A stretch of 37,915 bases of DNA from contig DATLNW010000014.1 in assembly GCA_035536575.1 (NCBI GenBank), forward strand, positions 1-37,915. Reading direction: 5' to 3'. Positions 20,299 through 37,595 of this stretch are shown in pieces. Under the pieces are notes generated by a model that searched no databases, was not told the DNA's origin, and saw nothing but the letters and a program-made list of their open reading frames with translations. The DNA is from Lysobacterales bacterium. Its GTDB lineage: Bacteria; Patescibacteriota; Microgenomatia; Levybacterales; UBA12049. Position 1 is the first letter of the stretch. Each line of letters opens with the position of its first letter. The translations under genes and the position numbers were made by a program.

Positions 20299-20306
20299 AT
20301 TACCAT

Positions 20307-21358: not shown

Positions 21359-21365
21359 TAATATG

Positions 21366-21394: not shown

Positions 21395-21418
21395 GGTTTC
21401 GTGTTGATTTTTTCATTG

Positions 21419-21445: not shown

Positions 21446-21452
21446 GAAAGAA

Positions 21453-22787: not shown

Positions 22788-22795
22788 ATTGTTCA

Positions 22796-22836
22796 ATCAT
22801 ACTTGATATTTATTACAGGTACAAGTACTATAGAAT
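22796..22836. promoter_or_regulatory. overlapping divergent promoters
   Basis: minus strand: TTGTAC(22824-22819)-17-TATGAT(22801-22796)-8-ATG; plus strand: TTGATA(22803-22808)-17-TACTAT(22826-22831), AAGGAG 22838-22843. Confidence 0.45.
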
Positions 22837-22850
22837 TAAGGAGTATTATT

Positions 22851-25703
22851 ATGGCAACAGAAGGAGCAACAGCTGTAGATGTAGCAACAGCAGCAGCACG
22901 CGCAGGAGAGCCTCGTCCCAACGCAACGCCAGCGGGCGTTGTGGAGCCTGATGGAAGAGTCAAGCCAGCCAGACGGTTTTTTGGTGCTAAAGATGTATCT
23001 GTTGCCGTTGAGCCTGATATTACAACGGGTGTTAAGCGAAGGGAAGTAAGCAGAAGCGGATCTACAGCAGAGGTTGGATTTTCAGCAGTAAGCAGGGGAG
23101 CGATGGCTGACCGGATCCGTGAGCGTTTGGGGGTAAGCCAGGAGCTTTTTAAAGACAAAGCCAGGCTTGATGTAATTGATAGGATACTTCTTAAGCGGGG
23201 AGAAGAGATAGCAAGTAAAATAGATGCTTCCTCAGAATTAACACGGGATGAGTTGGCCCTTGCATGGACTGTAATACAAGATGATCTTAGGCAAAAAGCT
23301 TCTGCTGCAAAGATGGCAGTTGATGAACAACCAGAGAAATTTCAGAAATTGAAAGATGCTCCTGTCATTGGAGGAATTTTCCGCCGTTACGCGTCCGAGG
23401 CAACAACAAGAGTTACCGAGTCAGATGGTCCAAGGCTTACAACAGAAGCTGTTAAGACGCATGGTATAACCGAATGGAATCAAGACGCAATAGCAGCTGA
23501 GTTACGACAGCTTAATGAGCTAAGGGCTGATATAGAGGGAAAACTTGGTTTTGGAACTCGTTCTGCAGACAGGACTTTGCCAAATTTTGATAAACAAAAT
23601 GGAGATTTGTTGCACGATTCTGTAGTTAAGAGCTTGAGTCTAATTCTTGAGCGGAAGCACCTAGAGAGTTCATTGGCAGAATTGCGAAAGATAAATCGAG
23701 TAGAGGCTGCGAGCATTGAACAGCAAGCAATTCAGGAAGGCTTGATGCGCTTTGCCCAAGAGCAGGCAAAAGCTTTATTAATAGCAGAAAGACCGGATGT
23801 AGACATAGCAAGGATTCAAAATCAACTCGATAAGATAAATAAGCCTGCTGATCAGGAGGAAGTGGATAAGGCTCATGCAGAGGCGCATCAGGCAATCCAG
23901 GACAAAAATGACGCACAGACGAGGCTGGACCAGCTCACAAATTCCAAAGAAAGTGTGATAGATGCAGTTGAGGATACTGAAGAAGCAAAACAGGAAGCAA
24001 AAGATAACTACGATAATTTGAAGCCTATTTTATCTGCCGAGATTAAGTCATGGGAAGCTCGTTTGGATGCTCTACCTGAGCCAACAGCCGATGAGATAGC
24101 AGATAAAGATGCTATGAGAGCTTACAACGAAAGAGATGCAACAAGAAGAAAACCAATAGTGGCTGAAATTGATAAACGGCATTTAGAAATTAGACGTTTA
24201 TTGCTTGAACAGACCAAAACAGATTATGCTCATACAAAAGCGGTGCGGAAAAAAGATGCGCTTTTGTCAGCTGATGATACCTTGAGGGGTTCTCTGGCCT
24301 ATGCAAAAAAAGAACTTACAGAAAAAGAAGTCGATTTAAAGAAAAAACTAAAAGCTGAGGAAAAGCTAAAGGAGCCTGCCGGACAAAAAGCCAATAAAAA
24401 GCGTGGGCTTGAGATATGGAAATCAGTCATGGAAAGGGACTCAAACGGGGTGCTAAACTATGAAAAGATTATTTCAACAGGTTTTGCCCAGGGAGGAGAC
24501 GAGGCAAGATATACTCAGGACCAGTTCGCGGACACCACGGCAACTGGGGGTACTTTTGTAGGGGCCGAGCTACTGCGGGAATCGATTTTCGGTGTTATTA
24601 AAGACGAATGGGTAAGTGACCCCAAGAATAAAGCACTGATCCGTAAAATGCTATCAGATGAGGCAATAGGACGTGGGATTGTGCGTATTTTTAGTATAGA
24701 TACAACTAACTATGGCTTAGCAAATCTTCTGCCCCAACTGGCCAATGCAGATCAGGCCCAGATAGGAGATTTGACACGTTTTCTTATCAGCGAAGGCTTG
24801 CGTTCGGCCGAAAAAGGCGATCCGTTCCTCAAAGTCTCAGAAAGGTACGCAAAGCCAAAGGCAAGAATTGAGCATGAGGCACTTGGAATATTGGAAGAGG
24901 AGATGGGAGTAGTCAAGCTAGAAAATATGGGTACTCTGGTTAACCCGCGTGTTATATGGGAAGGACCTGTGAGGGAAGCTCACGGTCGGATATTTGGATC
25001 ACTTATTCCTATTACACATACTGAGCTTAACTTCAGGGTTACTGAGGAATTTAACCGTGGCCTGGTAATAGCAGGTGTGCAGATTGAGGTCAATGAGGAA
25101 TTTTTAAAGTATTTGCCGGTTAATGTGTCAGCTAATATGCCTGAGGAGATACGCCGCTATTTTTATGATTCAGCAGGAGCGGTAAGAACGGAATTAAGAC
25201 AGCCCTCAGACAGAACGCTCAGATCTTTAAATATTCCTGAATGGATCACTATTTCAGATCCTGCGATGAATGGTGGAACCGGGCAACTGGAAAAATTCCA
25301 CGCCGTTACATCAGCTGATATGCTTAACGCTCTTGGGGCAGCTTACTCATCAGAAATTCCACGTAAATTGGCAACCCAGACAGCAAATAAAGTGCTTGAT
25401 ATGCCTCCTGCCGAGCGCAAGGATGCTATAAAAGGTCTTCCGGAGTTCAATATAACGTTTGCGGAAGCAGATACAGGGAATCCTATTAATTGCAGTATAC
25501 GTTTTGATAATAACGGCATTTTCTGGATTTCAGACGGAGGTGAAGAAATGCAGCTTGAGGCTTATTATACAAGACGGGAAGAGAATTATAGAGGGGATAG
25601 GCAGACACTTGAGTCTGCTGAGAGAGAAGCATTACAGCAGGAAATGGCAACAATACAAGAACATATCGGGATGAGGATTCTAGAAAATCAGCAGTATAAG
25701 TGA
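22851..25703 (+). CDS. hypothetical 950-aa protein, central coiled-coil-like region
   Basis: long ORF; AAGGAG 7 nt upstream of ATG 22851; E/K/A/Q-rich heptad-like middle third; no motif recognised. Confidence 0.85.
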   Translation: MATEGATAVDVATAAARAGEPRPNATPAGVVEPDGRVKPARRFFGAKDVSVAVEPDITTGVKRREVSRSGSTAEVGFSAVSRGAMADRIRERLGVSQELFKDKARLDVIDRILLKRGEEIASKIDASSELTRDELALAWTVIQDDLRQKASAAKMAVDEQPEKFQKLKDAPVIGGIFRRYASEATTRVTESDGPRLTTEAVKTHGITEWNQDAIAAELRQLNELRADIEGKLGFGTRSADRTLPNFDKQNGDLLHDSVVKSLSLILERKHLESSLAELRKINRVEAASIEQQAIQEGLMRFAQEQAKALLIAERPDVDIARIQNQLDKINKPADQEEVDKAHAEAHQAIQDKNDAQTRLDQLTNSKESVIDAVEDTEEAKQEAKDNYDNLKPILSAEIKSWEARLDALPEPTADEIADKDAMRAYNERDATRRKPIVAEIDKRHLEIRRLLLEQTKTDYAHTKAVRKKDALLSADDTLRGSLAYAKKELTEKEVDLKKKLKAEEKLKEPAGQKANKKRGLEIWKSVMERDSNGVLNYEKIISTGFAQGGDEARYTQDQFADTTATGGTFVGAELLRESIFGVIKDEWVSDPKNKALIRKMLSDEAIGRGIVRIFSIDTTNYGLANLLPQLANADQAQIGDLTRFLISEGLRSAEKGDPFLKVSERYAKPKARIEHEALGILEEEMGVVKLENMGTLVNPRVIWEGPVREAHGRIFGSLIPITHTELNFRVTEEFNRGLVIAGVQIEVNEEFLKYLPVNVSANMPEEIRRYFYDSAGAVRTELRQPSDRTLRSLNIPEWITISDPAMNGGTGQLEKFHAVTSADMLNALGAAYSSEIPRKLATQTANKVLDMPPAERKDAIKGLPEFNITFAEADTGNPINCSIRFDNNGIFWISDGGEEMQLEAYYTRREENYRGDRQTLESAEREALQQEMATIQEHIGMRILENQQYK

Positions 25704-25715
25704 TAAGCTAAAATT

Positions 25716-26048
25716 ATGATCTCTATTCAGCAACTTATTAATGTAGCACCTTTTCCGCAGGAAACAAAAGATGAGCTTCTTGCAAAATGTGATGATATGT
25801 CAGATTCAAAAAAAATTGAGGTGGAAAGTCTATGTTGGGCTCTTATCTCGCAGTGGTATCAAAATGAGTTGGGGGCTAGACAGGAAAAAGCAATGCTTGA
25901 AATGGCGGAAGGAGGCAAGATCTCCAGCAAAGAGGATTTTGCCAAGATGAGCGATACTCTTTTTGCCGAAATAGTAGGTAAATTTAAGGTTGAGGAAAGT
26001 CAGGAAGATCTGGAGGAAGTACGAGCCAAATTAGCGAATTTAAACTAG
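25716..26048 (+). CDS. hypothetical small acidic protein
   Basis: 110-aa ORF 12 nt after the preceding gene. Confidence 0.6.
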   Translation: MISIQQLINVAPFPQETKDELLAKCDDMSDSKKIEVESLCWALISQWYQNELGARQEKAMLEMAEGGKISSKEDFAKMSDTLFAEIVGKFKVEESQEDLEEVRAKLANLN

Positions 26049-26109
26049 GCTACCTTCCGTTTACAATTCTCCAGTCAGGGAATGAGGTATTTTGAACCTC
26101 CCCCACATA

Positions 26110-26928
26110 TTATGGTCTTTCTTCATCAACCTTGCCGACTTCTTTTATCGCTTCAAGTGTTTCTTCAGGCTTGAGCTTGGTTGTATCAATGTTCTCAGCC
26201 CTATAAATAACCAGCATTCCCTCGATAATCTCTTTGGCGCGCAAAGCATCGCTTTTCCAGAGAGTGGGAACGTAGACTGTGCTTATTTTTAACGGGTGAG
26301 GACCATAGTCAATAATTAATTTTCCCATAAATAGGCTCACTTCTACCCTGACATCCATAATTTCTTTAATAAGTATACTTGTTATTGTTTCTGTGAAGAA
26401 AAAGGTCTTTATTTTGATATTTACTTTATTCGCATCAATTGTTATGGTGTTTGGGAAGAAATCAAAAGGGAAGATTGCCTTTGCTGAAAGAAGTATTTTC
26501 TCAGTTCGGGATACAAGTATATCTAAGTCTTTTTTTGTTTCCTTAATCTCGTTTTGTCTGGACTTGCTCTTGTCTTCACTTTCATCTGCTTTTTTCTCCT
26601 TCACCTTGGAACTGCCGTCCATGCTTTTCATTTCCTGTGGGGTAAGGAAGGGATCACTAGCCAGTCTGTCGGCCATTTCTCCTATTTCCATATCGCCTTT
26701 ACCACCTTTTTTTCCAGTCTGCTCCACTGATTCTTTGGAATCCTTTTCTTCCTCCTTTGGTTCGGATGACTTTTTGGACTTGCTTGAGCGGGTTCTAACT
26801 GGCAGCTGCCCGCCGACTACAACATCCTGATAAAGATCATTGGTTTGTTTCATAAGGCCAACAAGTATATTAAATATGCAATATAAAACGGATAGAATAG
26901 GGTAAGAAGCAGATAAGAGGAGCAGCAA
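26110..26928 (-). CDS. hypothetical protein: N-terminal hydrophobic segment, K/E/S-rich linker, beta-rich C-terminal domain
   Basis: ORF; start uncertain (TTG 26928 or ATG 26853); any bacterial PH-like or VirB8-like resemblance is speculative. Confidence 0.6.
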   Translation of the reverse strand: MLLLLSASYPILSVLYCIFNILVGLMKQTNDLYQDVVVGGQLPVRTRSSKSKKSSEPKEEEKDSKESVEQTGKKGGKGDMEIGEMADRLASDPFLTPQEMKSMDGSSKVKEKKADESEDKSKSRQNEIKETKKDLDILVSRTEKILLSAKAIFPFDFFPNTITIDANKVNIKIKTFFFTETITSILIKEIMDVRVEVSLFMGKLIIDYGPHPLKISTVYVPTLWKSDALRAKEIIEGMLVIYRAENIDTTKLKPEETLEAIKEVGKVDEERP

Positions 26929-26945
26929 TTAGCCTTGGGACTGAC

Positions 26946-26973
26946 TTGCAAAAAATAATCAGTGTGGTATAGT
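26946..26973 (+). promoter_or_regulatory. promoter of the secreted-protein gene
   Basis: TTGCAA-16 nt-TGgTATAGT (extended -10), 12 nt to ATG 26986. Confidence 0.5.
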
Positions 26974-26985
26974 AGATAGGATTTC

Positions 26986-27549
26986 ATGAAAAAGAAAAGT
27001 TTTATATTTATAGGAATATCTGCAGTTTTTCTAGCTGTTCTTCCTCATGCTTTTGCCTACAGTACAGTTAGTATCTCGAGTAACGGGGAAGGGGCAACGT
27101 CCAGCGTAGATGTGACCACAAATACCGGTAATAATACGGTTTGTGTAAATGGAAACTGCACTACCTCACAAGGCTCAACAGGTAAAAGCACAGTGTGCAT
27201 AAACGGTAAATGCACAACATCAGATGGAGATATTAAAGCCGAGTCTGAGGATGGGTCAGCAAAGGTAAATATAAAAAATAATAGTTCCTCGGTAAAAGTT
27301 GAGCAAAAATCCGATAGCAAGACAAGTATTCAGATCAATCAGGAGTCTTTGGGAGCCAGTATAAAAGCAGATACAGACGAAGAAGCAGCTAAAAAGAAAA
27401 TAGAAGAAGAAAAAAAGAAGGCTCAGAAGAAAATTGAAAAAGCAAAAAAAGAAGCTGAAAAAGATTTTGATCTTCAGGAATTTGTGGAGCACCAGCTCGA
27501 ATTTTTGAGAGATCTTGTGACGTTTAAGTTTCTATTTGGTGATAAATAG
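26986..27549 (+). CDS. secreted protein with duplicated Cys motif and K/E-rich C-terminal helix
   Basis: signal peptide MKKKSFIFIGISAVFLAVLPHAFA; VCVNGNCTTS / VCINGKCTTS repeat. Confidence 0.8.
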   Translation: MKKKSFIFIGISAVFLAVLPHAFAYSTVSISSNGEGATSSVDVTTNTGNNTVCVNGNCTTSQGSTGKSTVCINGKCTTSDGDIKAESEDGSAKVNIKNNSSSVKVEQKSDSKTSIQINQESLGASIKADTDEEAAKKKIEEEKKKAQKKIEKAKKEAEKDFDLQEFVEHQLEFLRDLVTFKFLFGDK

Positions 27550-27560
27550 CTGTATTTTTT

Positions 27561-27643
27561 TGTCATTCCCGCGAAGGGCGGGAATCCATCCAACGAAGCG
27601 CTCAGGATGAACTGGATCCTCGCGACCTGAGTCGGGGATGACA
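27561..27643. mobile_element. GC-rich MITE-like palindromic element, copy H1 (intergenic)
   Basis: TGTCATTCCCGCGAAGGGCGGGAATCC ... GGGGATGACA; terminal inverted repeats. Confidence 0.7.
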
Positions 27644-27658
27644 GAATAAGTGGTTTAT

Positions 27659-28480
27659 TTATAGTACATAAAGATCCTGATTGTAGCCTCCAACCCCAAC
27701 GAATTCAGCCTCATGATTTATAACCGCCTCAAACGGTAGGCACGCAAAACAGCCACCCTTTTTGCATATATATTTACCTATAAGCCTTGCGCTTTTTACT
27801 TTTTTTGCGATTTCCAACACCCGCTCATGCGCCTCGTCTTTATCAGGCAGGCTCATTTCCAGAGGACTATCATCTCGGTCAAGATACCAATAACTGGCTT
27901 TGGATACCAATCTGTTCTGACAGTTCTCAACCAGCAAATAGTAAATAGGAAGCTGAAGCGAGTTGGGATTTTCATCGTTTCTGCCGGTCTTAAAATCTAT
28001 AATGTGAAGCGTATCATCAGGCAAATACTCAAGCCAGTCGATTTTTCCGCAAAGAATTATATTTTCCTCAAGTGATAAATAATAATTCGGTAGATCTTTT
28101 GGGATCTTAATTGCCTTCTGAAGCAGGGGACCGGGATTGTCCATTACCCTTTTGAGCATATTTACTCCACGCTCTTTTACCTGCTTTTCAGTTTCCTCAT
28201 CTTTAAATCCCCCAAGCTTACCACTTACCTTTTCCCATAACAAATTATATTTATCAAGAAGAGACTCACTAAAGCGTTTGTCAAAATCCAGAACAGATAA
28301 GGCTTCAAGTACTTCATGTACCGTTTGCCCCAAGGCAAGTGCTGGATTAACAATATTTACTTTATGCCCTGATGCAGGGTCTTTGTAGACATTCCGTAGA
28401 TAATAAAGCCTCGGGCAGGCGAGAAAATCGCTGATTGAGGAATTGGATACCCAGACGGCCGTGTATTTATCTTTGGGCAT
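27659..28480 (-). CDS. PD-(D/E)XK nuclease, Cas4/RecB-like with 4-Cys cluster
   Basis: N-terminal FLACPRLYYL; GKIDWLEY, IIDFKTG, QLPIYYLL motifs; C-terminal CKKGGCFAC. Confidence 0.8.
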   Translation of the reverse strand: MPKDKYTAVWVSNSSISDFLACPRLYYLRNVYKDPASGHKVNIVNPALALGQTVHEVLEALSVLDFDKRFSESLLDKYNLLWEKVSGKLGGFKDEETEKQVKERGVNMLKRVMDNPGPLLQKAIKIPKDLPNYYLSLEENIILCGKIDWLEYLPDDTLHIIDFKTGRNDENPNSLQLPIYYLLVENCQNRLVSKASYWYLDRDDSPLEMSLPDKDEAHERVLEIAKKVKSARLIGKYICKKGGCFACLPFEAVINHEAEFVGVGGYNQDLYVL

Positions 28481-28504
28481 ATTGAGATTATGAAAAATTG
28501 AAAA

Positions 28505-28915
28505 CTAAGGAGTAAGAACAGGCAATCTAAGATCTCCCAATTGAAGGCCGAAGAATCCAAGTACAAGTTGGAGGAAGAAGTAGGCTAAAAATGCAATGAT
28601 CAGACCGATAATAGCAGCAACTATATGTTTTCTAGCCTCATCAACTTTTCCTTTATCTCCACCCGATGTTATCCAACGGATACCACCCCAGATTAGGAAA
28701 AAGAGGGCAATTAGAACGGCTGCAATCAACAGAACTGTGACGATGGTTGAGACAATGTTCCCGATACTGCCTGCATTTAGACTACAAAGACGGCTGAAAT
28801 TTGTCCCGCCTCTCTGACCTGCTGCACAGGGATCAATATCTTGTTGTGCAAAAACGGGAAGTGCTGACGCAGCTAATAATCCTAATCCTCCTAAAAATGC
28901 GGATACTTTTTTCAT
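28505..28915 (-). CDS. TrbC/VirB2-type (T4SS) pilin-like protein, paralog 1
   Basis: signal peptide ..ALPVFAQQ; two TMs flanking WGGIRWITSGGDKGKVDEARKHIVAAIIGLII. Confidence 0.65.
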   Translation of the reverse strand: MKKVSAFLGGLGLLAASALPVFAQQDIDPCAAGQRGGTNFSRLCSLNAGSIGNIVSTIVTVLLIAAVLIALFFLIWGGIRWITSGGDKGKVDEARKHIVAAIIGLIIAFLAYFFLQLVLGFFGLQLGDLRLPVLTP

Positions 28916-28925
28916 GTCTTAATCT

Positions 28926-28955
28926 ATCTTAGAACAATATTTTTATAGTTGTCAA
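28926..28955 (-). promoter_or_regulatory. promoter of pilin paralog 1
   Basis: TTGACA-18 nt-TAAGAT, 10 nt to ATG 28915. Confidence 0.45.
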
Positions 28956-28969
28956 TACACCAATAGTTG

Positions 28970-29293
28970 TTAATTTATGCTCAATAAAGGAACATTAAAG
29001 AAATAACCAATCATACCAATGATAAAAAATGAAACAAATGAAATGATAAGCCCGATAACAGCCCAGGTTATTTTGCTTCTTGCCGCCTGAAGCTTGGTCT
29101 TGTCCCCACCTGAGGTTATCCACTGGATTCCGCCCAGAACTATGAAAATCAAAGACAGTACAAGACAGATTATAAGCATTATCGTATAGCTGTTGCGGAA
29201 TACCTTGGTCACGGTACTAAGGCCTCCGCTGGGAATACCTGCGGGTGCGTTAATTGTTTGTTGTCCGGGAAGTGTCAGGGAAAGATAGTCCAT
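28970..29293 (-). CDS. TrbC/VirB2-type pilin-like protein, paralog 2 (start ATG 29293 or 29299)
   Basis: LGGIQWITSGGDKTKLQAARSKITWAVIGLII between two TMs; no obvious signal peptide. Confidence 0.65.
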   Translation of the reverse strand: MDYLSLTLPGQQTINAPAGIPSGGLSTVTKVFRNSYTIMLIICLVLSLIFIVLGGIQWITSGGDKTKLQAARSKITWAVIGLIISFVSFFIIGMIGYFFNVPLLSIN

Positions 29294-29299
29294 AAACAT

Positions 29300-29328
29300 A
29301 GACTACTCATTTTCTAATAGAAAAACAA
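29300..29328 (-). promoter_or_regulatory. promoter of pilin paralog 2
   Basis: TTGTTT-17 nt-TAGTCT, 6 nt to ATG 29293. Confidence 0.45.
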
Positions 29329-29337
29329 GTAGGTAGG

Positions 29338-29434
29338 AATTGTTCTATTGCTAGATTGCTACATTGCTCCCTCACCCATACCCTCTCCCAGAGGGAGAGG
29401 GAACAATTTAACAATGTAACAATGAAGCAATGTT
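29338..29434. repeat. family E octad hairpin, copy E1, with central GC palindrome
   Basis: ATTGTTCT ATTGCTAG ATTGCTAC ATTGCTCC .. CCCTCTCCC-AGA-GGGAGAGGG .. AACAATTT AACAATGT AACAATGA AGCAATGT. Confidence 0.85.
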
Positions 29435-29473
29435 ATGTCATGACTCTCACTCAAGATGGGGATTTGATTATGA

Positions 29474-29502
29474 TTGAACAATCAAACCAAAGGCAGTAGA
29501 AT
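29474..29502 (+). promoter_or_regulatory. promoter of the ATPase-wHTH gene
   Basis: TTGAAC-17 nt-TAGAAT, 7 nt to ATG 29510. Confidence 0.55.
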
Positions 29503-29509
29503 AGTATTT

Positions 29510-30904
29510 ATGCAGCAGCAGCATTTTGAATCACTCTATCCGGATACTGCAAGGCAAATTGACATAGAGAAGATCATAAGTTACATAAAAGAGGGCTCAA
29601 GTTGCCAATTGTTAAGTATTCCCGGTGCAGGGCGCTCAACAGTTTTTCGCATACTTGCAAATAATAAAAAAGTCCGCTTGAAGCATCTTGGGGAGCTGCA
29701 AGCAAAAACCCATTTTGTTCTGGTCAACTTTTCAGAGATACGAAAACGTCCACTTTTTGACGCGATGAAGTTCTTATTCCTCTCAGTAGCTGATTCTCTT
29801 CGCGAACGGGGCATGAATACGGAGTATGAAAAAGTTAATGGTCTTTTTAGAGATTCTCTCAAGCTTGGCGATGAGTTGGTGCTCTTTCAGGCTCTCAAAC
29901 AAGCTATTGATTATCTGTCGCTCACGCGGAAAATGAATATCGTAATGCTCTTTGACCGCTTTGAGGAATATATACCAACAGTTACAAGTGAGTTTTTTAC
30001 CAATCTTAGAGCTTTGAGAACCCGCGCCAAATATCAATTTTCAGTCATATTTTCACTTAATAGACCTCTTGAATCGCTTTTGGATCCCACTCAGCTTTCC
30101 GATTATTACGAATTTGTGGAAGGACACGAGGTATATCTTACTTTGAGTGATGATGTGACTACAGAATTTAGAGTTAAATATATTGAAAAAATAACAGACA
30201 AAAAGTTGCATGGGGAATTATTGGGACAGATTATTAAGGAGACCGGGGGAGTTGGGAAACTAGTTAAGCTCTCAGTTGAGGCGTTGCTCAGTGATATGTC
30301 ATCCCCGCGAAAGCGGGGATCCATGGATTCCCATTTTTCCTCCAAAGGCGGTCTGGCGCATGGGAATGACAAGAATCTTTTGGGAGAATATCTCTTCTCT
30401 CAAAAGCAGATTAAAGAAGCTCTTTCTGAGATTTGCCGCTCTCTAACACCGTCTGAGCAGGTGACCCTTATCAGGCAAAATTATGATAATAAGGAGGCAG
30501 TTGAGTATTTAGAATGCATAGCCATTTTATCCAAAAACAAGATACAAATCCCTTTATTTGAACAACATATTAGAACACATATGTCAGATTTTAAATCTAG
30601 CCCAAAAAAGATTATTTATGATGGGGATAAGAATATAATTAAAATGGGAGAAGTTGTACTTTCAGATCAGCTCACATCCGCTGAATTTAAGCTTCTGAGT
30701 TTTCTTTTGCAAAGTACTGAACGGATTGTAACGCGGGACGAAATCATAGGAGTGGTTTGGTCAGAGGTGAAATCGACTGCAGGAATTACCGATCAGGCCG
30801 TTGATCAGTTAATTTTCAGGGTAAGGCGCAAGATTGAGGAAGACCCAAACAGTCCGCAGCATTTGTTAACAGTCAAAGGTCGTGGGTTTAAGTTTATTCC
30901 CTGA
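29510..30904 (+). CDS. P-loop ATPase fused to a C-terminal OmpR/PhoB-type winged-helix DNA-binding domain
   Basis: Walker A-like PGAGRST, Walker B-like IVMLFDRFEE; C-terminal LTSAEFKLLSFLL...DQAVDQLIFRVRRKIE...LLTVKGRGFKF. Confidence 0.8.
   Translation: MQQQHFESLYPDTARQIDIEKIISYIKEGSSCQLLSIPGAGRSTVFRILANNKKVRLKHLGELQAKTHFVLVNFSEIRKRPLFDAMKFLFLSVADSLRERGMNTEYEKVNGLFRDSLKLGDELVLFQALKQAIDYLSLTRKMNIVMLFDRFEEYIPTVTSEFFTNLRALRTRAKYQFSVIFSLNRPLESLLDPTQLSDYYEFVEGHEVYLTLSDDVTTEFRVKYIEKITDKKLHGELLGQIIKETGGVGKLVKLSVEALLSDMSSPRKRGSMDSHFSSKGGLAHGNDKNLLGEYLFSQKQIKEALSEICRSLTPSEQVTLIRQNYDNKEAVEYLECIAILSKNKIQIPLFEQHIRTHMSDFKSSPKKIIYDGDKNIIKMGEVVLSDQLTSAEFKLLSFLLQSTERIVTRDEIIGVVWSEVKSTAGITDQAVDQLIFRVRRKIEEDPNSPQHLLTVKGRGFKFIP
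30297..30371. mobile_element. GC-rich MITE-like element, copy H2, inserted in frame (75 nt)
   Basis: TGTCATCCCCGCGAAAGCGGGGATCC ... GGGAATGACA; encodes SSPRKRGSMDSHFSSKGGLAHGND. Confidence 0.7.
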
Positions 30905-30911
30905 TAAATTT

Positions 30912-31002
30912 ATTGCTCCATTGTTAAATTGCTAAATTGTTTTTTTGCGAAAAGAACAATAAGTGAGTTGCAGCGAACGCAACAATAGAACAATGTAACA
31001 AT
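30912..31002. repeat. family E octad hairpin, copy E2
   Basis: ATTGCTCC ATTGTTAA ATTGCTAA ATTGTTTT .. GTTGC-AGCGAAC-GCAAC .. AACAATAG AACAATGT AACAATCG. Confidence 0.85.
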
Positions 31003-31075
31003 CGTCCACATTGTAATCTTCCTGTAATCCAAATATCAAGTCTGTTTTGCCCCCAGGAGATACAATCTCTCCACT

Positions 31076-34000
31076 ATGGAACAAGAAACACAAAAATTGA
31101 CATCAAGGCTCGCCTCCCGATATGATAGGTATAGGAGAAAGCCTATGTCAGAAAGTAGCAGCACAGCATTACTCGACAATATAGATCCTGAGGTTCTTGA
31201 GGCGTGGATACCGCATCTCAAAGCCGCAAAGGGGCAGGATGAGCGCAGCGCGATTTATTCAGCAGCCAAGTTGGGCGCGCGGCCGGGGGACAAAAGCATG
31301 GAGGAGTTGACAAAGGAAGATGTGGACAAGAGGTTTGAAGAAATCGTAACAGCGGAGGAGAAAGAAAGAAGAAGGACAAAGGTTGAGCAGGATGTTGATA
31401 AATTTGTGTTATCGCTAAAAACTCATGAATCCCTAGAAGGTAAATCGCACCCGATGTATGAGCTAAATGGCAAAAAAGGCATACGCAAAGAAAAATTAAG
31501 AGATATAGATATAAAGGACTGGACTGAATTTGGCTGGGGAGATAGAGAAAAAAGTCAGGTCGAGGAAAAATTAGCAACAATATTGGGTTGGCAAAAAAAA
31601 GATAAGAGGATAAATAATGCAATTGATATATTGGTCGCCTCAGGACAAACAGCTCAAACAGTGTTGGATGAGCTTCAAAATCCACCAGATTTTACGCTGA
31701 CTGAGGAAGACCGGCAAAGCATAAGGCAAAACCCAAGATTGACACCCCATGGTGTTGTAGCTTCTAAAAAGCTTAGCTTGTTCACTGACTTAAATATAGA
31801 CGAGAAATATGCAAAACGGTTCGTATTGCAGGATGAGTTTGCTGACGAGCTGGAAAACTACGATTATCAGGAAGATCCAGGTAACATAGAGGAGATTGCC
31901 TGGCAGGTGATGCATCACTATAAACATGATGAGTGGGGGCCTAATGGTAAATTCCCGCTTCTTGAGATGAGAATAGCAAAAGACGCAAATGGAAAAGTGG
32001 ATCCTGAAAAAAGCAAATATTATATAAGTCAAAAGAACTTCGTCCGCTGGGCACGGGAGCGCATGTGGAATCTCTGGGATATCAACAATGACGTAGGAGA
32101 CTTTGTCTCGGCGATTGAGCTCCCCAAGAGGTATAGTAAGTTGACTTTTGGCCAAATGTTTCCTGAATGGAGCAAGTACTTTGCCTCAGAAGATGGGGAT
32201 ACGCATTATGGATTGATGGCCCAGGAGTTGATAGTTGAGTCTTATGGTCTTGGAGCCATGAATCAGATGTCTGCTAAATACAAGCAGGAGATGCGGGATC
32301 CTGATGGGCTTCAAAAAGCCGTTGGTGAGATGTTCGCTGGGAACGCATTTACCAAAGAAACGTTCCGTAAAAATCTTCTGGAGCTTATGACTATAATGCC
32401 TCTTAATTATGAGGGAAATGAGCCTGGGCAGCTTTTGGAGAATGACGGGATATTTGGAGGCGCTATGATGGAGATGTTCCTGGCCTACTATAACCTATCT
32501 GATTTTGATGAACTACAAAAACTGATAGGAAAAGGCTCAAGCTTTTTTACAAAAGAAGGATACATGCAGGCACTCCAGAGCGTTGTTTTTGATAAAACAA
32601 CCGAATCATCAGGGGAGGCCAATCCGACTGTCCTAAATGCAGCGACCCAGAAAGCGCTTGATAATGCATTTGATGAAAACGGCCAGATAACAAAAGATAG
32701 CCATAAGGATAATTTTATTGACCTGATCAACTTTTTCGGTAATAAACTCAACAACCCGGATGCTGAATACACAGTAAGAAGAATGTTGTATAGGGTAATT
32801 GCTGAAAAATACGGCCGGGTAGTCAAGAAAGAAAACGGAGAGGTACAGACAGACACGGTAGTTGTAGATGGTGTAGCGAGAGAAGTTGTCAGATACGGCT
32901 TGACATCTGATGATGAAGGGAAAAATGAAGATACCTTCACGCAGCGCATGGCATGGGTTGGGGCAAATGCCATGGCCCGGGTATTTGGGGCAGGGGCTAG
33001 AAACGATACTACAGCACAGGGCTATGACGGCATGACCAAGATGCATCTTTTCGAAACATATAGAAATAAAATGCTTAATAAAAATGCGGATGAGCACGGT
33101 AATCCTTATACTATTCATCAATTTAAAGTTCTCGCAATGGATCCGTTTAATGCGATGACTACTGAGAGCTGGGAGTATATAAAAGATGAGAACGGAAAAA
33201 TAAAAACAGACAAAAACGGTAATCCTCTGACGCGGCAAAAACCTGTTATGGAGGTACTCCGTGAGATGCAGGCCACAATGTCAACTTATTCTGCTCAACT
33301 CCGCCAGAAAGAAATCGCGTATGAAAACGAGACCGATGAAGCAAAAAAAGCTGAGAAACTGAAAGACCTGAATGAATTCAGGACCCAGAAGAACAGAAGA
33401 TATCTAAATAAAGCAGGAGAGCTTACTTTTAATGCCCGCGCGATGTCAAATTATTATGATGATCATTTGATGCGCGCCCATGAAACTTACAAGCTTATTT
33501 TGGGCGCTCAGGAAGTGAAGATGGAGAAGTATGTAGCGTATGATGCATGGGGTGGGGTATCCTTCAACAGGGAGCAATTTCAGGAAGATATACAGCATAA
33601 GGTCATTCATCCGATCAGATATTTCCTCAATACTTATCCTGATGTTAAATATAACCAGAAATTCCGTATGCTTGACCAGGCAGCTACGATTCGTGAACAC
33701 AGACCAATGTACCGTGTAATGACACTTGGGGAGGCTATGTTTGGCCATGAGCTACTTAACCGTGAGCAGTTCTGGTTGAGGGATAAGAGAGGTAAGCCCA
33801 TCGAGATGAGGGACAAGAACGGGCGCAAGATGAAAGGATTATATGAAATTGATTACGATAAGCTCGAGACAACGGATGGAAAAGTGCAAGTTTGGAAGCA
33901 GTTTTTTATGACCAAGCTGGCCGGGGACCTTCATGCTCATAGGGCATTTCATAGTTCTGATAACAGATTCGATATCAATTACTACAATAACGTATTAAAA

Positions 34001-34249
34001 GCCGTAGAAAGTATACCCAAAGGCCTTGAGGGAGATGAATTTAGCATAAGAGATCAGACAAGGGAAGGTAATTTCTTTGATAAAAAAGACATGAAATGGT
34101 TCAAGCAAGCTATAAAAGTTGAGAATTATGACCTGTTCTTAAGGGCTGTATTTAAAGATATTTTCTTGCCTGATGAGAAAGAAGGAGGGATAGGAATTCT
34201 TTTGTTCTTTACTCTGGCAGCGCGGGAAATAATCAGACGGGAGGGGTAG
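31076..34249 (+). CDS. hypothetical protein of about 1050 aa (alternative start ATG 31145 has AGGAGA 6 nt upstream)
   Basis: uninterrupted ORF; hydrophobic C-terminal GGIGILLFFTLAA; no recognisable motif. Confidence 0.85.
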   Translation: MEQETQKLTSRLASRYDRYRRKPMSESSSTALLDNIDPEVLEAWIPHLKAAKGQDERSAIYSAAKLGARPGDKSMEELTKEDVDKRFEEIVTAEEKERRRTKVEQDVDKFVLSLKTHESLEGKSHPMYELNGKKGIRKEKLRDIDIKDWTEFGWGDREKSQVEEKLATILGWQKKDKRINNAIDILVASGQTAQTVLDELQNPPDFTLTEEDRQSIRQNPRLTPHGVVASKKLSLFTDLNIDEKYAKRFVLQDEFADELENYDYQEDPGNIEEIAWQVMHHYKHDEWGPNGKFPLLEMRIAKDANGKVDPEKSKYYISQKNFVRWARERMWNLWDINNDVGDFVSAIELPKRYSKLTFGQMFPEWSKYFASEDGDTHYGLMAQELIVESYGLGAMNQMSAKYKQEMRDPDGLQKAVGEMFAGNAFTKETFRKNLLELMTIMPLNYEGNEPGQLLENDGIFGGAMMEMFLAYYNLSDFDELQKLIGKGSSFFTKEGYMQALQSVVFDKTTESSGEANPTVLNAATQKALDNAFDENGQITKDSHKDNFIDLINFFGNKLNNPDAEYTVRRMLYRVIAEKYGRVVKKENGEVQTDTVVVDGVAREVVRYGLTSDDEGKNEDTFTQRMAWVGANAMARVFGAGARNDTTAQGYDGMTKMHLFETYRNKMLNKNADEHGNPYTIHQFKVLAMDPFNAMTTESWEYIKDENGKIKTDKNGNPLTRQKPVMEVLREMQATMSTYSAQLRQKEIAYENETDEAKKAEKLKDLNEFRTQKNRRYLNKAGELTFNARAMSNYYDDHLMRAHETYKLILGAQEVKMEKYVAYDAWGGVSFNREQFQEDIQHKVIHPIRYFLNTYPDVKYNQKFRMLDQAATIREHRPMYRVMTLGEAMFGHELLNREQFWLRDKRGKPIEMRDKNGRKMKGLYEIDYDKLETTDGKVQVWKQFFMTKLAGDLHAHRAFHSSDNRFDINYYNNVLKAVESIPKGLEGDEFSIRDQTREGNFFDKKDMKWFKQAIKVENYDLFLRAVFKDIFLPDEKEGGIGILLFFTLAAREIIRREG

Positions 34250-34285
34250 GGAATAGGCGATCGGGGTTTTTAAATAACTTTCAGC

Positions 34286-36631
34286 CTAATGCTTTTCTTT
34301 ATTCTCAAGATCTTCAAATAGTCTCTCCCAGTCAGCTTCATGCATCTGAGCTATATCCTCAGGGCCCTTATTCTCAAGTGCATCTTCAAGGTGAAGAGTG
34401 ATATTTTGTTTGGTAGTTGCGGATTTAGATCCTGCTTTTTTTAGCTTGTCCAAATACTCATCAGCTTTCTTTCCTATAAAGCCTGATTTAGCCTCTCCAT
34501 CTGTCTTGCCTGAGACTGTTACATGGCCTGCCGTGATTGTAACAGTGCCGGCTTCACGTGATACAGATCCTTTAGGTTCAGGTCTAGGCATGTCAAATGC
34601 TTTTCTTGGATTTTCTCCAGAAAGTTTTTCTTCGGATTTGCCCCAGCCGATGAATGGTATGCGTCCTTCTCCGCTTTCGCCTTTCATTCTCCCCTTCAGT
34701 CTGTCTCTCAATCTACGTTTTCCTTTGCTTTCGCCTGAGGTGCCTTCTCCTGATCCACCTTCTTTTTCGCCATTTCTTGCATTCCTTCTTCCGCGATAAC
34801 CCAATGGTATTTCGCCATGATTTTTTGCTATTATTTCTTCTCCTTGAGCAGTCTTCCAGAATGCATGGTCTTTGTCCCGGTATGCTTCTTTTACTTGTCT
34901 CCGTTTCCAATCAACTGATTCATAACCACCGCTCTTTGCAGCGCGTCTCTCCTCAATCCTTCTTTTAGTAGCACCCTTGAAAGGATTCAAGCCAGATGTA
35001 CTAGCACGGTTCAAAGCCCAGTCTCCTGCTTTATCTTTGGCAACGGCCATAGCACCAACGGCATGGCCTGTACTGTCGTGTCTGTTGAGATGTTTCATGG
35101 CACGTGATGCTGGTCCACCTATGATAGCAGCACCTCCTGCAATACCTGCTGCGACAAGGCCCGGGGAGCCAATACCCTTAACACCCATTTTCTCCTTCAG
35201 AATAGTATTTATTGAGGGTGCTATAAGAAGGGCGCCAAACGCCAGAAGAGCGCCAAAATTGGCTCCGTTATTGTGTCCTATGAGAGGGGGGATAAAATTG
35301 TTCGGATCAGCAGCAGTGCCGTTTGGGGGACTATAGACATCCATAAGTACCCGTGCCGCGACAATCAGGAAAGCGGTTAGGGGGAAAACGGCTATATTCA
35401 CGAAAAGTGCTCTGAGCCATTTTTCAAATCCAAGAGGCTTTGTCGGGAGCAGGCCAAAAACAATATAAATAGGACTGACAATTATGTAGACAAGAGTAAA
35501 TAGATAGGCCTTAATTAGCTGGAACCACAGCCGGAAAAGGGAAACTAAGAGCACAACTAAGATAATTAATACAACCACAATGCTTGCCAACCACCCAAAG
35601 AAACTGGCAATACATGAACCAGGGTTAATGTTAGGAGTAGGTATAAATCCAAGTTTTTTATCAATTTTAATACACTTATCTCCCTCATCAACTCCCAAAA
35701 GGTTTCTTATAATATCGCGAAGCATAGTGCTTACACCACCTGAGACCTTATCGGTTATATGGAATACACCGCCGTTGTCTTTTGCAGCACTGCCTGTATG
35801 GAAAACATTATTTACATAAACCAATGGAATTTCCAGAAGATTTCTTGAGGCCATTTCCCCAAGGGGAGTGTTGCCTTTGTCTGTTGGTATCTGAACAGGG
35901 CTTGAAACACTTATCAGATTAACACCTGCATAGGTGGTCACCCACATCAAATCAACCATAAGGGCTGCAATTCCATAAGAAAAAGTAATAAGGATAATCG
36001 ATATAATCACCTTTGGAATCTGATTCTGAATACTCATAACAGTCCGGGGGTCGATTTTTACCCTGAGCATAATACCAATCCCAATAAGTACAAAAGCGAG
36101 CGTCAGGAGGATATATGCAATATTGCGTACTGTTTCCCAAAGCTTGAGAATAGGACGCAGGGCATTAAATCCATAACTGTCTTCCTGAGCATAAGCCGGC
36201 TTTACAATGCCGAAGTTTTTCGCAAGATACTCCGTATAAAGACCGGTTGTCGCGGGCTGCTGATAGGTCATGGATATCATTTCAGTTGTCATCCCAAGCA
36301 TTCCACCAACCAAGGGGTGACCGTTTTCATCAAGCTGCGGTTTGATAAGGCCGATTTTGCGGGTCTGCGGATTTATCCCAAGGCACCCCAAGCTCGGGTC
36401 TATCGGATCAATTCCTGAGATCTGACAAATCAGGGCTGATATTACTTCAATTGTTGTGGCTTGTGCGAAGGTATGTTGATTTTGAGGGACATTGGAATCA
36501 AGATTGGGGGAGTTAAATGAATTAACCGGATTGGAGGCAGGGTGGTTGCCTGAGGTCTGCGCAAACGATTTGTGCGGGACAACTATTAATAAAAATAGCG
36601 CAAAACTGAAGAAAATAAAAAACCGAAGCAC
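34286..36631 (-). CDS. large polytopic membrane protein, possibly TrbL/VirB6-like (GTG 36631 proposed; ORF-track ATG is at 36772)
   Basis: signal-like MLRFFIFFSFALFLLIVVPHKSFA-Q, about 6-7 TMs, long G/K/R/E-rich C-terminal tail; family call is topology-based only. Confidence 0.55.
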   Translation of the reverse strand: MLRFFIFFSFALFLLIVVPHKSFAQTSGNHPASNPVNSFNSPNLDSNVPQNQHTFAQATTIEVISALICQISGIDPIDPSLGCLGINPQTRKIGLIKPQLDENGHPLVGGMLGMTTEMISMTYQQPATTGLYTEYLAKNFGIVKPAYAQEDSYGFNALRPILKLWETVRNIAYILLTLAFVLIGIGIMLRVKIDPRTVMSIQNQIPKVIISIILITFSYGIAALMVDLMWVTTYAGVNLISVSSPVQIPTDKGNTPLGEMASRNLLEIPLVYVNNVFHTGSAAKDNGGVFHITDKVSGGVSTMLRDIIRNLLGVDEGDKCIKIDKKLGFIPTPNINPGSCIASFFGWLASIVVVLIILVVLLVSLFRLWFQLIKAYLFTLVYIIVSPIYIVFGLLPTKPLGFEKWLRALFVNIAVFPLTAFLIVAARVLMDVYSPPNGTAADPNNFIPPLIGHNNGANFGALLAFGALLIAPSINTILKEKMGVKGIGSPGLVAAGIAGGAAIIGGPASRAMKHLNRHDSTGHAVGAMAVAKDKAGDWALNRASTSGLNPFKGATKRRIEERRAAKSGGYESVDWKRRQVKEAYRDKDHAFWKTAQGEEIIAKNHGEIPLGYRGRRNARNGEKEGGSGEGTSGESKGKRRLRDRLKGRMKGESGEGRIPFIGWGKSEEKLSGENPRKAFDMPRPEPKGSVSREAGTVTITAGHVTVSGKTDGEAKSGFIGKKADEYLDKLKKAGSKSATTKQNITLHLEDALENKGPEDIAQMHEADWERLFEDLENKEKH

Positions 36632-36751
36632 GAAATCCGAAATCCGAAACAAATTCAAATTTTCAAAATCCGAATGCCCAAAATGTTTTAGATTTTTATA
36701 ATTTGTATTTTGATATTGTTTCGATTTTCGATATTCTAATTTCGAATTTGC
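36625..36751 (-). repeat. family D heptad hairpin, copy D2
   Basis: reverse complement shares long blocks with D1, e.g. CGAAATTAGAATATCGAAA and GTTTCGGATTTCGGA. Confidence 0.85.
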
Positions 36752-36884
36752 ATACCCGGCAGGGAGGCGCATAGTTATTTTAGTTTGAGGTATTTTGAGT
36801 GGGTTGTCAAGGGCGGGACGATATAAATTTTCTTTGAAAATTTAAACGTCCCCAGCCACGTTTCCCGATTAAATCGGGATTACG

Positions 36885-36974
36885 TGGCGGAGGGAGGGGG
36901 ATTCGAACCCCCGATAACCTTGCGGTCATACGAGCTTTCCAAGCCCGCGCACTAGGCCACTATGCGATCCCTCC
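36885..36974 (-). tRNA. tRNA-Ser (anticodon GGA), CCA encoded
   Basis: hand-folded: acceptor GGAGGGA/TCCCTCC, D stem GCA/TGC, anticodon stem CGGGC/GCTCG, loop TTGGAAA, long variable arm, T arm GGGGG-TTCGAAT-CCCCC. Confidence 0.9.
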
Positions 36975-36982
36975 AAATTGGC

Positions 36983-37049
36983 GTATGGCTAATAGCTTAT
37001 AGCTAATAGTTATAATTTCCATCTGCTATTTGCCATCTGCCATTAGCCG
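36983..37049. repeat. family F heptad hairpin between NUDIX and tRNA-Ser
   Basis: TATGGCT AATAGCT TATAGCT AATAGTT .. CCATCTG CTATTTG CCATCTG CCATTAG; right arm overlaps the NUDIX stop. Confidence 0.8.
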
Positions 37050-37481
37050 TTTTGCTTCCTGCCACACTTTTTTGTCCGCTTTGAAAGTTAGCCTTTCTTC
37101 AACCCCATCAGTGGGTATCCATTCAACATTCTCCATTTCCATATCATGCTTTGCTATATCACCTGATAAATACTCCATAATAAAATAATAAACAGTCTTT
37201 TTAATTTTTTCCTTTTCCCACACATACCAATATGTGACAGGGGAGAGGGGCTTTAAGATTTTTCCGATCACACCGGTCTCTTCCTCAACTTCACGCAGAG
37301 CTGCTTCTTCCCTTGTCTCTTTTTTATGGGCATCGATCAGGCCTTTGGGAAAAACCCAGCCATGATGTTGGGAATGTTGTGCAACAAGAATTAAAATAGT
37401 TTTCGCGTGGTTTCGCGAGTTGTTTTTCCGCATGGTTTCGCGCTTATATACAATGCCACCTGCTGAAAACTCGAACTTCAT
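37026..37481 (-). CDS. NUDIX hydrolase (ATG 37481 preferred over the TTG at 37502)
   Basis: Nudix box GWVFPKGLIDAHKKETREEAALREVEEETGV. Confidence 0.88.
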   Translation of the reverse strand: MKFEFSAGGIVYKRETMRKNNSRNHAKTILILVAQHSQHHGWVFPKGLIDAHKKETREEAALREVEEETGVIGKILKPLSPVTYWYVWEKEKIKKTVYYFIMEYLSGDIAKHDMEMENVEWIPTDGVEERLTFKADKKVWQEAKRLMADGK

Positions 37482-37482
37482 A

Positions 37483-37595
37483 ATAAATATATTAAATATC
37501 AAAAATTAAAAAGTAAAAACACAGATTCAGCGTTTTTATTATTTTTCATCTTTTATATGTATTTTTAATCTTTAATGTTTAATTTTTAATTTTGA
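37483..37595. repeat. family B-like AT-rich heptad hairpin, copy B5
   Basis: ..ATATCAAAAATTAAAAAGTAAAAAC.. / ..TTTTTAATCTTTAATGTTTAATTTTTAATTTTG. Confidence 0.6.

Follow-up and report, generated by a model that had tools for sequence, protein, structure and literature searches.

We analyzed a complete contig of 37,915 nt (37.9 kb; DATLNW010000014.1), hereafter the window, from a metagenome-assembled genome (MAG) of the Levybacteria (Microgenomatia, Patescibacteria). It contains a group of genes with the character of a type IV secretion system (T4SS): two tandem pilin genes and a gene for a VirB6/TrbL-like polytopic membrane protein, with a transcriptional regulator gene and the gene of a protein of about 1000 aa lying between them. 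A first-pass annotation had taken the range 26110-36772 as a candidate secretion or DNA-uptake module without a T4SS ATPase. All the open reading frames (ORFs) it listed were recovered, at the same coordinates or a few codons from them, but the range was too short, as the conserved neighbourhood reaches upstream to position 21453. The features of the segment running from the pilins to the flanking tRNA gene are the following:

28505-28915, minus strand: VirB2-like T4SS pilin A (136 aa, PF18895), corresponding to pilin 2 of the Levybacteria array
28970-29299, minus strand: VirB2-like T4SS pilin B (109 aa, PF18895), corresponding to pilin 1 of the array
29339-29433, no strand: inverted array of the 8-nt unit ATTGYTNN around a perfect 9-bp GC hairpin, CCCTCTCCC/GGGAGAGGG
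29510-30904, plus strand: regulator with a putative N-terminal STAND/AAA_16-like NTPase domain and a C-terminal OmpR/PhoB-type winged helix-turn-helix (wHTH) domain
30912-31002, no strand: second inverted ATTGYT array, in the spacer between the regulator gene and the large gene
31012-31029, plus strand: direct repeat TGTAATC-N4-TGTAATC with an 11-bp period, candidate wHTH binding site
31076-34249, plus strand: conserved, largely alpha-helical protein of about 1000 aa (1057 aa here), defined by its homolog family
34286-36772, minus strand: extended VirB6/TrbL-like polytopic membrane protein, assigned from TrbL matches, topology, Foldseek and synteny
36885-36974, minus strand: tRNA-Ser(GGA), directly upstream of the VirB6-like gene

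Conservation and division of the gene cluster in Levybacteria

Scanning one genome per species with the VirB6-like family gave 80 loci (L numbers below), whose neighbourhoods were all mapped by phmmer, the queries being the proteins of the window and of locus L006. The informatively titled loci belonged mostly to Levybacteria or Levyibacteriota; the rest had generic or evidently wrong bin labels. The canonical Levybacteria order starts with tRNA-Ser(GGA), the VirB6-like gene, the convergent gene of the ~1000-aa protein and the wHTH regulator gene, which may be on either strand. It continues, often after a gene for a large pilin-domain protein, with two to five PF18895 pilins and with PrgI/VirB3-like, TraC-like and VirB4 genes. 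In L006, for example, the genes for PrgI (PF12666), the TraC-like protein (PF26593) and VirB4 (P-loop_TraG, DUF87, AAA_10) come straight after three pilins. Of the 55 species loci that extend 9 kb or more past the VirB6-like gene, 54 have pilin orthologs at the equivalent position; PrgI is present in at least 35 and VirB4 in at least 24, the last two being minimum counts because they include only what is visible within the flanking DNA at hand. Since the VirB6-like/pilin block is contiguous with PrgI, TraC-like and VirB4 genes in most Levybacteria, it constitutes one side of a full T4SS cluster. The co-location of the VirB6-like and pilin genes is not due to chance, the block recurring in 54 of the 55 loci.

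The loci closest to the window are L001/L002, L003, L005 (= L032), L007 and L010, which share at least 47% identity in the VirB6-like protein. In this group, pilin 2 is followed by a nuclease gene (a 216-bp remnant in L001/L002) and mostly also by genes encoding 187 and 272 aa, the position that elsewhere in Levybacteria is held by pilin 3, PrgI, the TraC-like gene and VirB4. The nuclease arrangement was present in only two of the 55 species loci. As the earlier reading had it, VirB4 is missing from the window: the six-frame translation contained no VirB4, PrgI or TraC-like sequence, and a tblastn search of the window with the whole ATPase arm of the relatives described next gave pilin cross-matches only.

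The VirB4 proteins of Levybacteria are 75-88% identical to each other, and a search with a VirB4 alignment produced matches on contigs of the sizes of those carrying the split-type loci (1,142,061; 413,560; 167,478 and 98,009 bp), three of which were confirmed. On the closed 1.14-Mb Levybacteria chromosome OY970292.1 the VirB4 locus spans 813-835 kb and the VirB6 arm 869-891 kb; the corresponding ranges are 54-76 kb and 1-16 kb on JAWVHH010000165.1, and 125-147 kb and 182-205 kb on JAWVHC010000039.1. Thus, in all three split-type relatives checked, the two arms are on the same contig about 45-50 kb apart, and the ATPase arm is placed beside dnaN-dnaA. The order of the ATPase arm was the same in the three: a DUF2298 protein, one PF18895 pilin, PrgI-like, TraC-like, VirB4, a DUF11/CLIPPER surface protein, small ORFs, dnaN and dnaA. 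The pilin of this arm is the ortholog of pilin 3 of the unsplit clusters (51-54% identity, as against about 40% to the window pilins), which indicates a clean break in a cluster that was contiguous in the ancestor, with pilin 2 left on one side and pilin 3 on the other.

We consider it very likely that the segment 28505-36772 is the pilin/regulator/VirB6 arm of a chromosomal T4SS of the Patescibacteria type, derived from the MPF-FATA class of mating-pair formation (MPF) systems, with its ATPase arm encoded elsewhere. Because the ATPase arm is found on the same contig in three split-type relatives, the ATPase of the window system is probably off this contig and not absent; from the synteny of JAWVHH010000165.1, the missing arm would be expected about 25-30 kb beyond the left end of the contig. 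This agrees with one of the options left by the first-pass annotation, that of a fragment whose ATPase lies outside the window. Its option of a minimal or highly divergent apparatus without a T4SS ATPase is contradicted by VirB4 being contiguous in most Levybacteria and ~45-50 kb off in the three split-type genomes. A canonical T4SS immediately outside the window had been named as the finding that would speak against such an apparatus, and the loci of the relatives present essentially that, at the distances given above.

The VirB6-like protein

The membrane protein encoded at 34286-36772 shows an N-terminal anchor, six transmembrane (TM) segments between residues 218 and 521 and a charged tail of 268 aa, as the earlier description of six to seven TM segments with a charged tail implied. 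The NCBI annotation places its start at a TTG codon at 36658, for a length of 790 aa. Its homologs number more than 525, and the window protein keeps 59 of the 59 family-invariant residues. The TrbL domain (PF04610) was matched by 14 of 24 sampled family members at E<=0.01 (best E 3e-06). An AlphaFold2 model of residues 48-560, built from a 54-sequence alignment, was a helical bundle with a pLDDT (predicted local distance difference test) of 80. When it was compared by Foldseek with 350,542 PDB chains, ranks 1 to 4 were all TrwI/VirB6 of R388, with a probability of 0.96 and otherwise weak scores. Sequence comparisons with the PDB gave noise only, both by phmmer with the protein and by a profile search with the family. 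The assignment to VirB6, drawn from the TrbL matches in the family, the Foldseek ranks, the topology and the synteny, is sound; the first-pass call is upheld on these grounds, the window protein itself being below the TrbL threshold.

The protein resembles R388 TrwI (PDB 8rt9, 7o3v) and VirB6 in its polytopic core of at least five TM helices, its weak profile match and the top Foldseek ranks, and it resembles the extended VirB6 proteins (PMC12857230) in having a large hydrophilic C-terminal extension. It differs from VirB6/TrbL in an N-terminal extracytoplasmic domain of ~150 aa with conserved Cys, in scoring below the Pfam gathering value and in its low structural alignment scores (Foldseek TM-scores 0.22-0.36). 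In the survey of PMC12102498, VirB6 homologues are described as "scarce" in Microgenomatia. The gap is filled in Levybacteria by this divergent family of more than 500 members, placed beside tRNA-Ser(GGA).

The pilins

Both pilins scored above the gathering cut-off of 26.6 bits for the T4SS_pilin family PF18895 (40.8 bits for pilin A and 29.1 for pilin B) and gave weak matches to NCBIfam models of pilin-like conjugal transfer proteins. They are tandem paralogs with 36% identity (E 3e-20) and have two TM helices each; in pilin A an N-terminal hydrophobic leader or signal peptide precedes the TM segments at residues 57-75 and 101-119. The pair had been taken beforehand for TrbC/VirB2-type pilin-like paralogs, which these results bear out.

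In 35 of the 55 Levybacteria loci, the short pilin genes come after a much larger ORF (230-740 aa) that weakly matches the window pilins; examples are L023 11534-12604, L028 12196-13341, L043 18777-20159 and L066 9749-11974. No such ORF is present in the window.

The regulator and the ~1000-aa protein

Among the 61 loci with 7 kb or more of flanking DNA, 54 contain the regulator gene; its start at 29510 in the window was placed from homologs. The C-terminal Trans_reg_C domain scored 62.7 bits over residues 387-462 of the 464-aa form. A Response_reg receiver domain was matched neither in the window regulator nor in 25 homologs, so that the wHTH is shared with the OmpR/PhoB response regulators and the receiver domain is not. 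Concerning the N-terminal domain, the Walker A motif of the window protein reads PGAGRST, with Arg replacing Lys. Among 59 homologs the motif GxPGxG[R/K]S carries R in 45 cases and K in 13, and a hhhhDRFEEY motif is conserved. Weak matches to AAA_22 (6 of 25), AAA_16 (5 of 25) and also to ORC-CDC6-like and nSTAND domains were obtained with the homologs and none with the window protein; a PDB profile search with the N-terminal domain matched the wHTH alone. From these motifs, the N-terminal domain may act as a STAND-like sensor or oligomerisation domain, its catalytic competence being doubtful. Hence, of the P-loop ATPase fused to an OmpR-type wHTH proposed in the first-pass annotation, the wHTH is established and the P-loop is not, the sequence being GAGRST with Arg for Lys. 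The combination of a putative STAND-like NTPase and a wHTH on one polypeptide recalls AfsR; unlike SARP/AfsR, the order is reversed, with the NTPase N-terminal and the wHTH C-terminal, and the Walker Lys is changed to Arg in most members.

The linker of the window regulator contains an in-frame insert of ~30 aa not found in the homologs, within which lies a palindrome, GTCATCCCCGCGAAAGCGGGGATC...GGGAATGAC (~30298-30370). One of the intergenic spacers of L014 contains a similar palindrome, GTCATTCCCGCGAAGGCGGGAATC...GGGGATGAC. The insert looks like an insertion of the MITE (miniature inverted-repeat transposable element) type tolerated in a coding sequence.

The 1057-aa protein had no match in Pfam, NCBIfam, PHROG or PADLOC and had been regarded as an orphan with a hydrophobic C-terminus. 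A word-indexed search found 12 close homologs, and a HMMER profile scan with the ~1000-aa family collected 323 cluster representatives of 900-1900 aa, of which 196 reached E<=1e-30. It is thus no orphan, and its C-terminus is below the hydropathy score of a TM segment; neither a signal peptide nor a hydrophobic segment of TM level was detected in the protein. In most Levybacteria loci a large gene, the positional homolog, is found between the regulator and VirB6-like genes. The AlphaFold2 model of the protein, from a 12-sequence alignment, was poor (pLDDT 61.6); a Foldseek search with it against the PDB and BFVD gave no match at E<=0.001, with TM-scores of ~0.1 or less, and phmmer against PDB sequences gave noise only. 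In L003, a 23S_rRNA_IVP gene (PF05635; 9501-9866) is located between the regulator and large genes, in a 545-bp spacer with flanking periodic repeats.

Candidate regulatory elements

The direct repeat TGTAATC-N4-TGTAATC at 31012-31029 is followed by a -10 box, TACAAT, which is placed 9 nt before the ATG of the large gene at 31076. It is the sole exact match in the window, and it occurs in the equivalent position in L001, L002, L005, L032 and L010. With two 7-bp direct repeats at an 11-bp period, the candidate site resembles a pho box, and from its place and form the adjacent wHTH regulator might bind it.

The two ATTGYT arrays are located on both sides of the regulator gene. The first, at 29339-29433, fills the divergent spacer between the pilins and the regulator and has a predicted RNA folding energy of -33 kcal/mol. 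Eleven of the 12 ATTGYT matches of the window fall in the two spacers flanking the regulator gene, where 1.98 would be expected by chance. We considered the arrays as operators of the regulator and downgraded them as such, because periodic hairpins of a similar kind, made of other units, are found in most spacers of the contig.

These periodic hairpins consist of tandem 7-8-nt units followed by the complementary units inverted, forming long imperfect stems of -10 to -24 kcal/mol. They were observed in the spacers at 4985-5062, 8585-8662, 9330-9400, 11328-11440, 16270-16340, 19750-19822, 20230-20300, 36625-36755 and 36980-37052. One family of units (TTAGTG... / CTAAAAC) is common to several spacers of the ribosomal operon; in the relatives, comparable arrays are built from different units. 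The hairpins may be terminators, processing sites or mobile micro-elements. In addition, a -10-like box, TAnAAT, lies 6-9 nt before the starts of the regulator and large genes, with no Shine-Dalgarno sequence (29497-29510 and 31061-31076). The box before the regulator gene was also seen in L001, L005, L006, L015, L018, L020, L028, L054 and L058. This arrangement suggests leaderless mRNAs.

Genes flanking the T4SS arm

The first 20.8 kb of the window (1-20.8 kb) are taken to be a ribosomal-protein operon, whose 3' end was scanned and contained the rpoA, L17, L13 and S9 genes. Scans for domains, integrases, relaxases and cas genes covered the ORFs between 21083 and 37502, to which the results given here for these genes apply. 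The remaining features of this interval are:

21453-22796, minus strand: first gene of a hypervariable divergent pair, 447 aa, with a C-terminal TM anchor
22803-25703, plus strand: second gene of the pair, 966 aa, rich in coiled coil
25716-26048, plus strand: small helical protein of 110 aa, with weak homologs after the pilin arrays of some Levybacteria
26110-26853, minus strand: soluble protein of ~247 aa with a strongly conserved C-terminal domain, homologs solely in split-type loci
26986-27549, plus strand: secreted protein with a signal peptide and two CxxxxC pairs, homologs solely in split-type loci
27659-28480, minus strand: Cas4/AddB-like PD-(D/E)XK nuclease with four Cys (PDDEXK_1), a subclade-specific neighbour
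37026-37502, minus strand: NUDIX hydrolase (PF00293, 65.7 bits), a syntenic neighbour and not a T4SS part

The nuclease matched PDDEXK_1 (PF12705) with 67.3 bits against a cut-off of 22, and also an exonuclease group, phrog_69. As in the Cas4/AddB-type Fe-S nucleases, its PD-(D/E)XK core is accompanied by one N-terminal and three C-terminal Cys (Cys22, Cys239, Cys244 and Cys247), a set that would be suited to an Fe-S cluster. PD-(D/E)XK nucleases that stand alone and bear Fe-S Cys motifs are common as repair enzymes. The score for the Cas4 equivalog TIGR00372 was 37.1 bits, below the cut-off of 65. Unlike Cas4, moreover, the nuclease has no cas or CRISPR neighbourhood, as no cas genes were detected among the ORFs scanned and the tandem repeats found in the contig included no spaced CRISPR-like array, and it is dispensable in L001. 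Of the Cas4/RecB-like four-Cys nuclease described in the first-pass annotation, the PD-(D/E)XK core and the four Cys therefore stand and the Cas4 identity does not (37 versus 65 bits). Its adjacency to the pilins is confined to the window, L003, L005/L032, L007 and L010. In L001 (7352-7567, equivalent to L002 7286-7501), the 216-bp remnant is found between the secreted-protein gene and pilin A, and the arm is intact.

Regarding the two genes further to the left, the signal peptide and both CxxxxC pairs of the secreted protein, earlier noted as a Cys-repeat protein, were found. The ~247-aa protein has no Pfam match. Its ORF had been listed up to 26928 and credited with a TM anchor, which proved to be an artefact of an upstream TTG: five of five homologs start at the Met at 26853, and no TM segment remains. 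We read the nuclease and the genes at 26110-27549 best as neighbours brought in by rearrangement and not as parts of the machine. The first-pass idea of an unrelated juxtaposition thus holds for 26110-28480, which is beside the pilins only in the subclade, and fails for the VirB6-to-pilin block. The 110-aa protein matched a 117-aa protein of L005 (E 7e-05), and its matches in L040 and L080 come directly after the pilins.

Neither the 447-aa nor the 966-aa protein of the divergent pair had a family match in Pfam, PHROGs or PADLOC. In L001 the counterparts are equal in size and position, one of them without similarity (E 0.045) and the other similar in the C-terminal part only (E 4e-05), whereas the genes flanking the pair are well conserved (for example, 64% identity in the ~1000-aa protein). 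The GC content of the pair is raised, at 0.45-0.47. A 1051-aa protein situated after the arm in L005 was considered as a homolog of the 966-aa protein and rejected, no similarity being found. To the left of the pair, at 21083-21394 (minus strand), there is an ORF for a RelB-type antitoxin (PF04221, 27 bits). In the PADLOC and PHROGs searches, the matches were limited to the nuclease and the wHTH, and no defence-system signature was found.

On the right side, tRNA-Ser(GGA), the sole match in an Rfam scan of the window, lies immediately ahead of the start of the VirB6-like gene in 23 of 23 loci examined and is itself usually preceded by a cluster of Ser/Arg tRNA genes; the NUDIX gene occurs further out on this upstream side in 31 of 56 loci. 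The adjacency of tRNA-Ser(GGA) is ancestral chromosomal synteny and not an insertion site or island border. The accessory island between rpsI and tRNA-Ser inferred in the first-pass annotation is thereby set aside. The absence of relaxase, integrase and cas genes, which it had also reported, was reproduced for the ORFs scanned between 21083 and 37502.

Relation to known systems

According to Quinonero-Coronel et al. (2025; PMC12102498), the T4SSs of Patescibacteria derive from monoderm MPF-FATA systems and mostly have no relaxases. In the same paper, PF18895 pilins were reported in 1948 virB4-carrying assemblies, near virB4 in 1135 of them, with pilin arrays, and virB4 was located near dnaA and dnaN. 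Southlakia epibionticum ML1 cannot grow as an epibiont without its T4SS and pilin array (Wang et al. 2023, via PMC12857230 and PMC12102498). The Patescibacteria T4SS is the sole T4SS reported as essential for the life of its bearer, and its cargo is not known (PMC12857230). The window shares with the system described in PMC12102498 the tandem PF18895 pilins, a VirB6-like polytopic protein, the lack of a relaxase and the chromosomal location, and in the relatives of the window PrgI/VirB3, the TraC-like protein and VirB4 are next to dnaN-dnaA as well. The TraC-like protein is possibly the TrsD of that paper. Unlike the described system, the cluster is split in two arms, ~45-50 kb apart in the relatives, and it includes the STAND-like-wHTH regulator and the ~1000-aa family, of which no mention was found in sections 13-14 of PMC12102498 or by a term search. 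The Rickettsiales rvh system is similar in having T4SS parts at several chromosomal sites and duplicated VirB2/VirB6-type genes (as cited in PMC12102498). However, rvh is a diderm MPF-T system with VirB7-B11, and that of the window is of the monoderm type, with two arms only.

The window locus is therefore a known Patescibacteria T4SS in a split arrangement and not a new ATPase-less machine, and no new kind of machine is added by it. What is new is modest: a large divergent VirB6 family, two conserved T4SS-linked genes (those of the regulator and of the ~1000-aa protein) and a hypervariable pair of giant genes. Linkage to the T4SS is as tight for the regulator and the ~1000-aa protein as for the recognised components, which makes these two proteins candidates for regulation and for substrate or structural roles. 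And since T4SS gene sets of Levybacteria can be split, the absence of VirB4 from a short contig does not amount to an ATPase-less system.

With the parts list and the linkage to VirB3 and VirB4 as the observed basis, a mode of action may be sketched from established T4SS biology. The pilins would be exported by Sec and kept in the membrane as two-helix hairpins, from which VirB4, acting in trans, would extract them for polymerisation on the VirB6 platform. The resulting pilus or conduit would make contact with the bacterium that these epibionts need as a host. Two promoters would be under the control of the wHTH regulator, the divergent one of the pilins and that of the large gene, whose ~1000-aa product might be an accessory part or a substrate.

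Evaluation of alternative explanations

Several observations weigh against the assignment of 28505-36772 to a T4SS arm. The TrbL score of the window protein was 18.1 bits (residues 356-473), below the gathering score of 25.9, and the Foldseek scores for TrwI were weak, with E 0.05, TM-scores of 0.22-0.36 and a root-mean-square deviation of 14 A. As the window is the whole contig, VirB4 cannot be demonstrated for this very genome. The nuclease gene follows pilin A on the same strand after a gap of 24 nt, so that co-transcription or a functional link is possible. In addition, the roles proposed for the regulator and the ~1000-aa protein are read from synteny and motifs, and the T4SS of Levybacteria is known from its genes.

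There is a small chance that the locus goes further and represents a lineage-specific extension of the T4SS. The regulator would then read the 11-bp-spaced TGTAATC repeats, the ~1000-aa protein would be a structural part or the principal substrate, the hypervariable pair would be secreted effectors or host-specificity determinants under diversifying selection, and in the split subclade the Cas4-like nuclease would possibly have been recruited for host DNA. A narrower proposal, which we think unlikely, is that the pilin operon captured the Cas4-like nuclease, which would be co-expressed and process DNA, for example host DNA as a source of nucleotides. The 216-bp remnant of L001, the absence of the nuclease from the unsplit clusters and the frequency of such stand-alone nucleases among repair enzymes all speak against it. 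They outweigh the shared strand with pilin A, the 24-nt gap and the adjacency kept in the window, L003, L005/L032, L007 and L010, in which neighbouring proteins have 47-64% identity, and we rate the probability of a functional nuclease-pilin operon as low. According to PMC12102498, the T4SS loci of the class ABY1 co-localise with competence and recombination genes, which would favour such a capture.

The T4SS-arm assignment also has to be weighed against decay. A non-functional relic, decaying since its separation from the ATPase genes, could be suspected from the physical distance between the arm and virB4 and from a regulator with Arg for the Walker Lys and a ~30-aa in-frame insert. However, all ORFs are intact, the VirB6-like protein keeps its 59 of 59 invariant residues, the split arrangement persists across genomes diverged to 45-64% identity and the Arg variant is that of the family majority (45 of 59). 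Scattered chromosomal T4SS genes moreover work in Rickettsia (cited in PMC12102498), and a relic is accordingly very unlikely.

Slightly less credit still can be given to an autonomous minimal secretion or DNA-uptake apparatus that would dispense with a VirB4-type ATPase and have its own Cas4-like nuclease and regulator. In its favour, the 37.9-kb contig lacks VirB4, VirD4 and a relaxase, the nuclease is 24 nt from pilin A on the same strand and the arrangement recurs in at least five further genomes. Yet every genome checked carries a highly conserved VirB4 (79-90% identical to the Levybacteria query in the best local alignment) together with PrgI, the TraC-like protein and pilin 3 about 45-50 kb off, the block is contiguous with VirB4 in most Levybacteria, and L001 has kept the arm with its nuclease almost wholly deleted. 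Least likely of all is a mobile genomic island or remnant of an integrative and conjugative element inserted at tRNA-Ser: a tRNA gene at the flank, T4SS-type and hypothetical giant genes inside and the RelB-like antitoxin gene at 21083-21394 could recall one, but no integrase or relaxase was detected among the ORFs scanned in 21083-37502, the tRNA-Ser(GGA)/VirB6-like adjacency is found in 23 of 23 loci across the order, the GC content of the arm (0.39-0.44) is near that of the ribosomal operon, and the T4SS is chromosomal and near-universal in the lineage (loci survey; PMC12102498).

Additional observations

Bin labels such as Xanthomonadales, Limnocylindrales, Acidiferrales, "uncultured Gammaproteobacteria" and Saccharimonadales stand on the MAG records of the window, L008, L015-L017, L021-L029 and others. 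Because these records share the gene order of their T4SS locus with records that bear the name Levybacteria, the labels seem to be errors of binning or of taxonomy. Finally, ARAGORN predicted a tRNA-Ser with the anticodon ACT (A34), unusual for a bacterial tRNA-Ser, within the tRNA cluster that precedes the T4SS arm, at L006 7572-7659 and also in L014, L017, L020, L024, L025 and L050.

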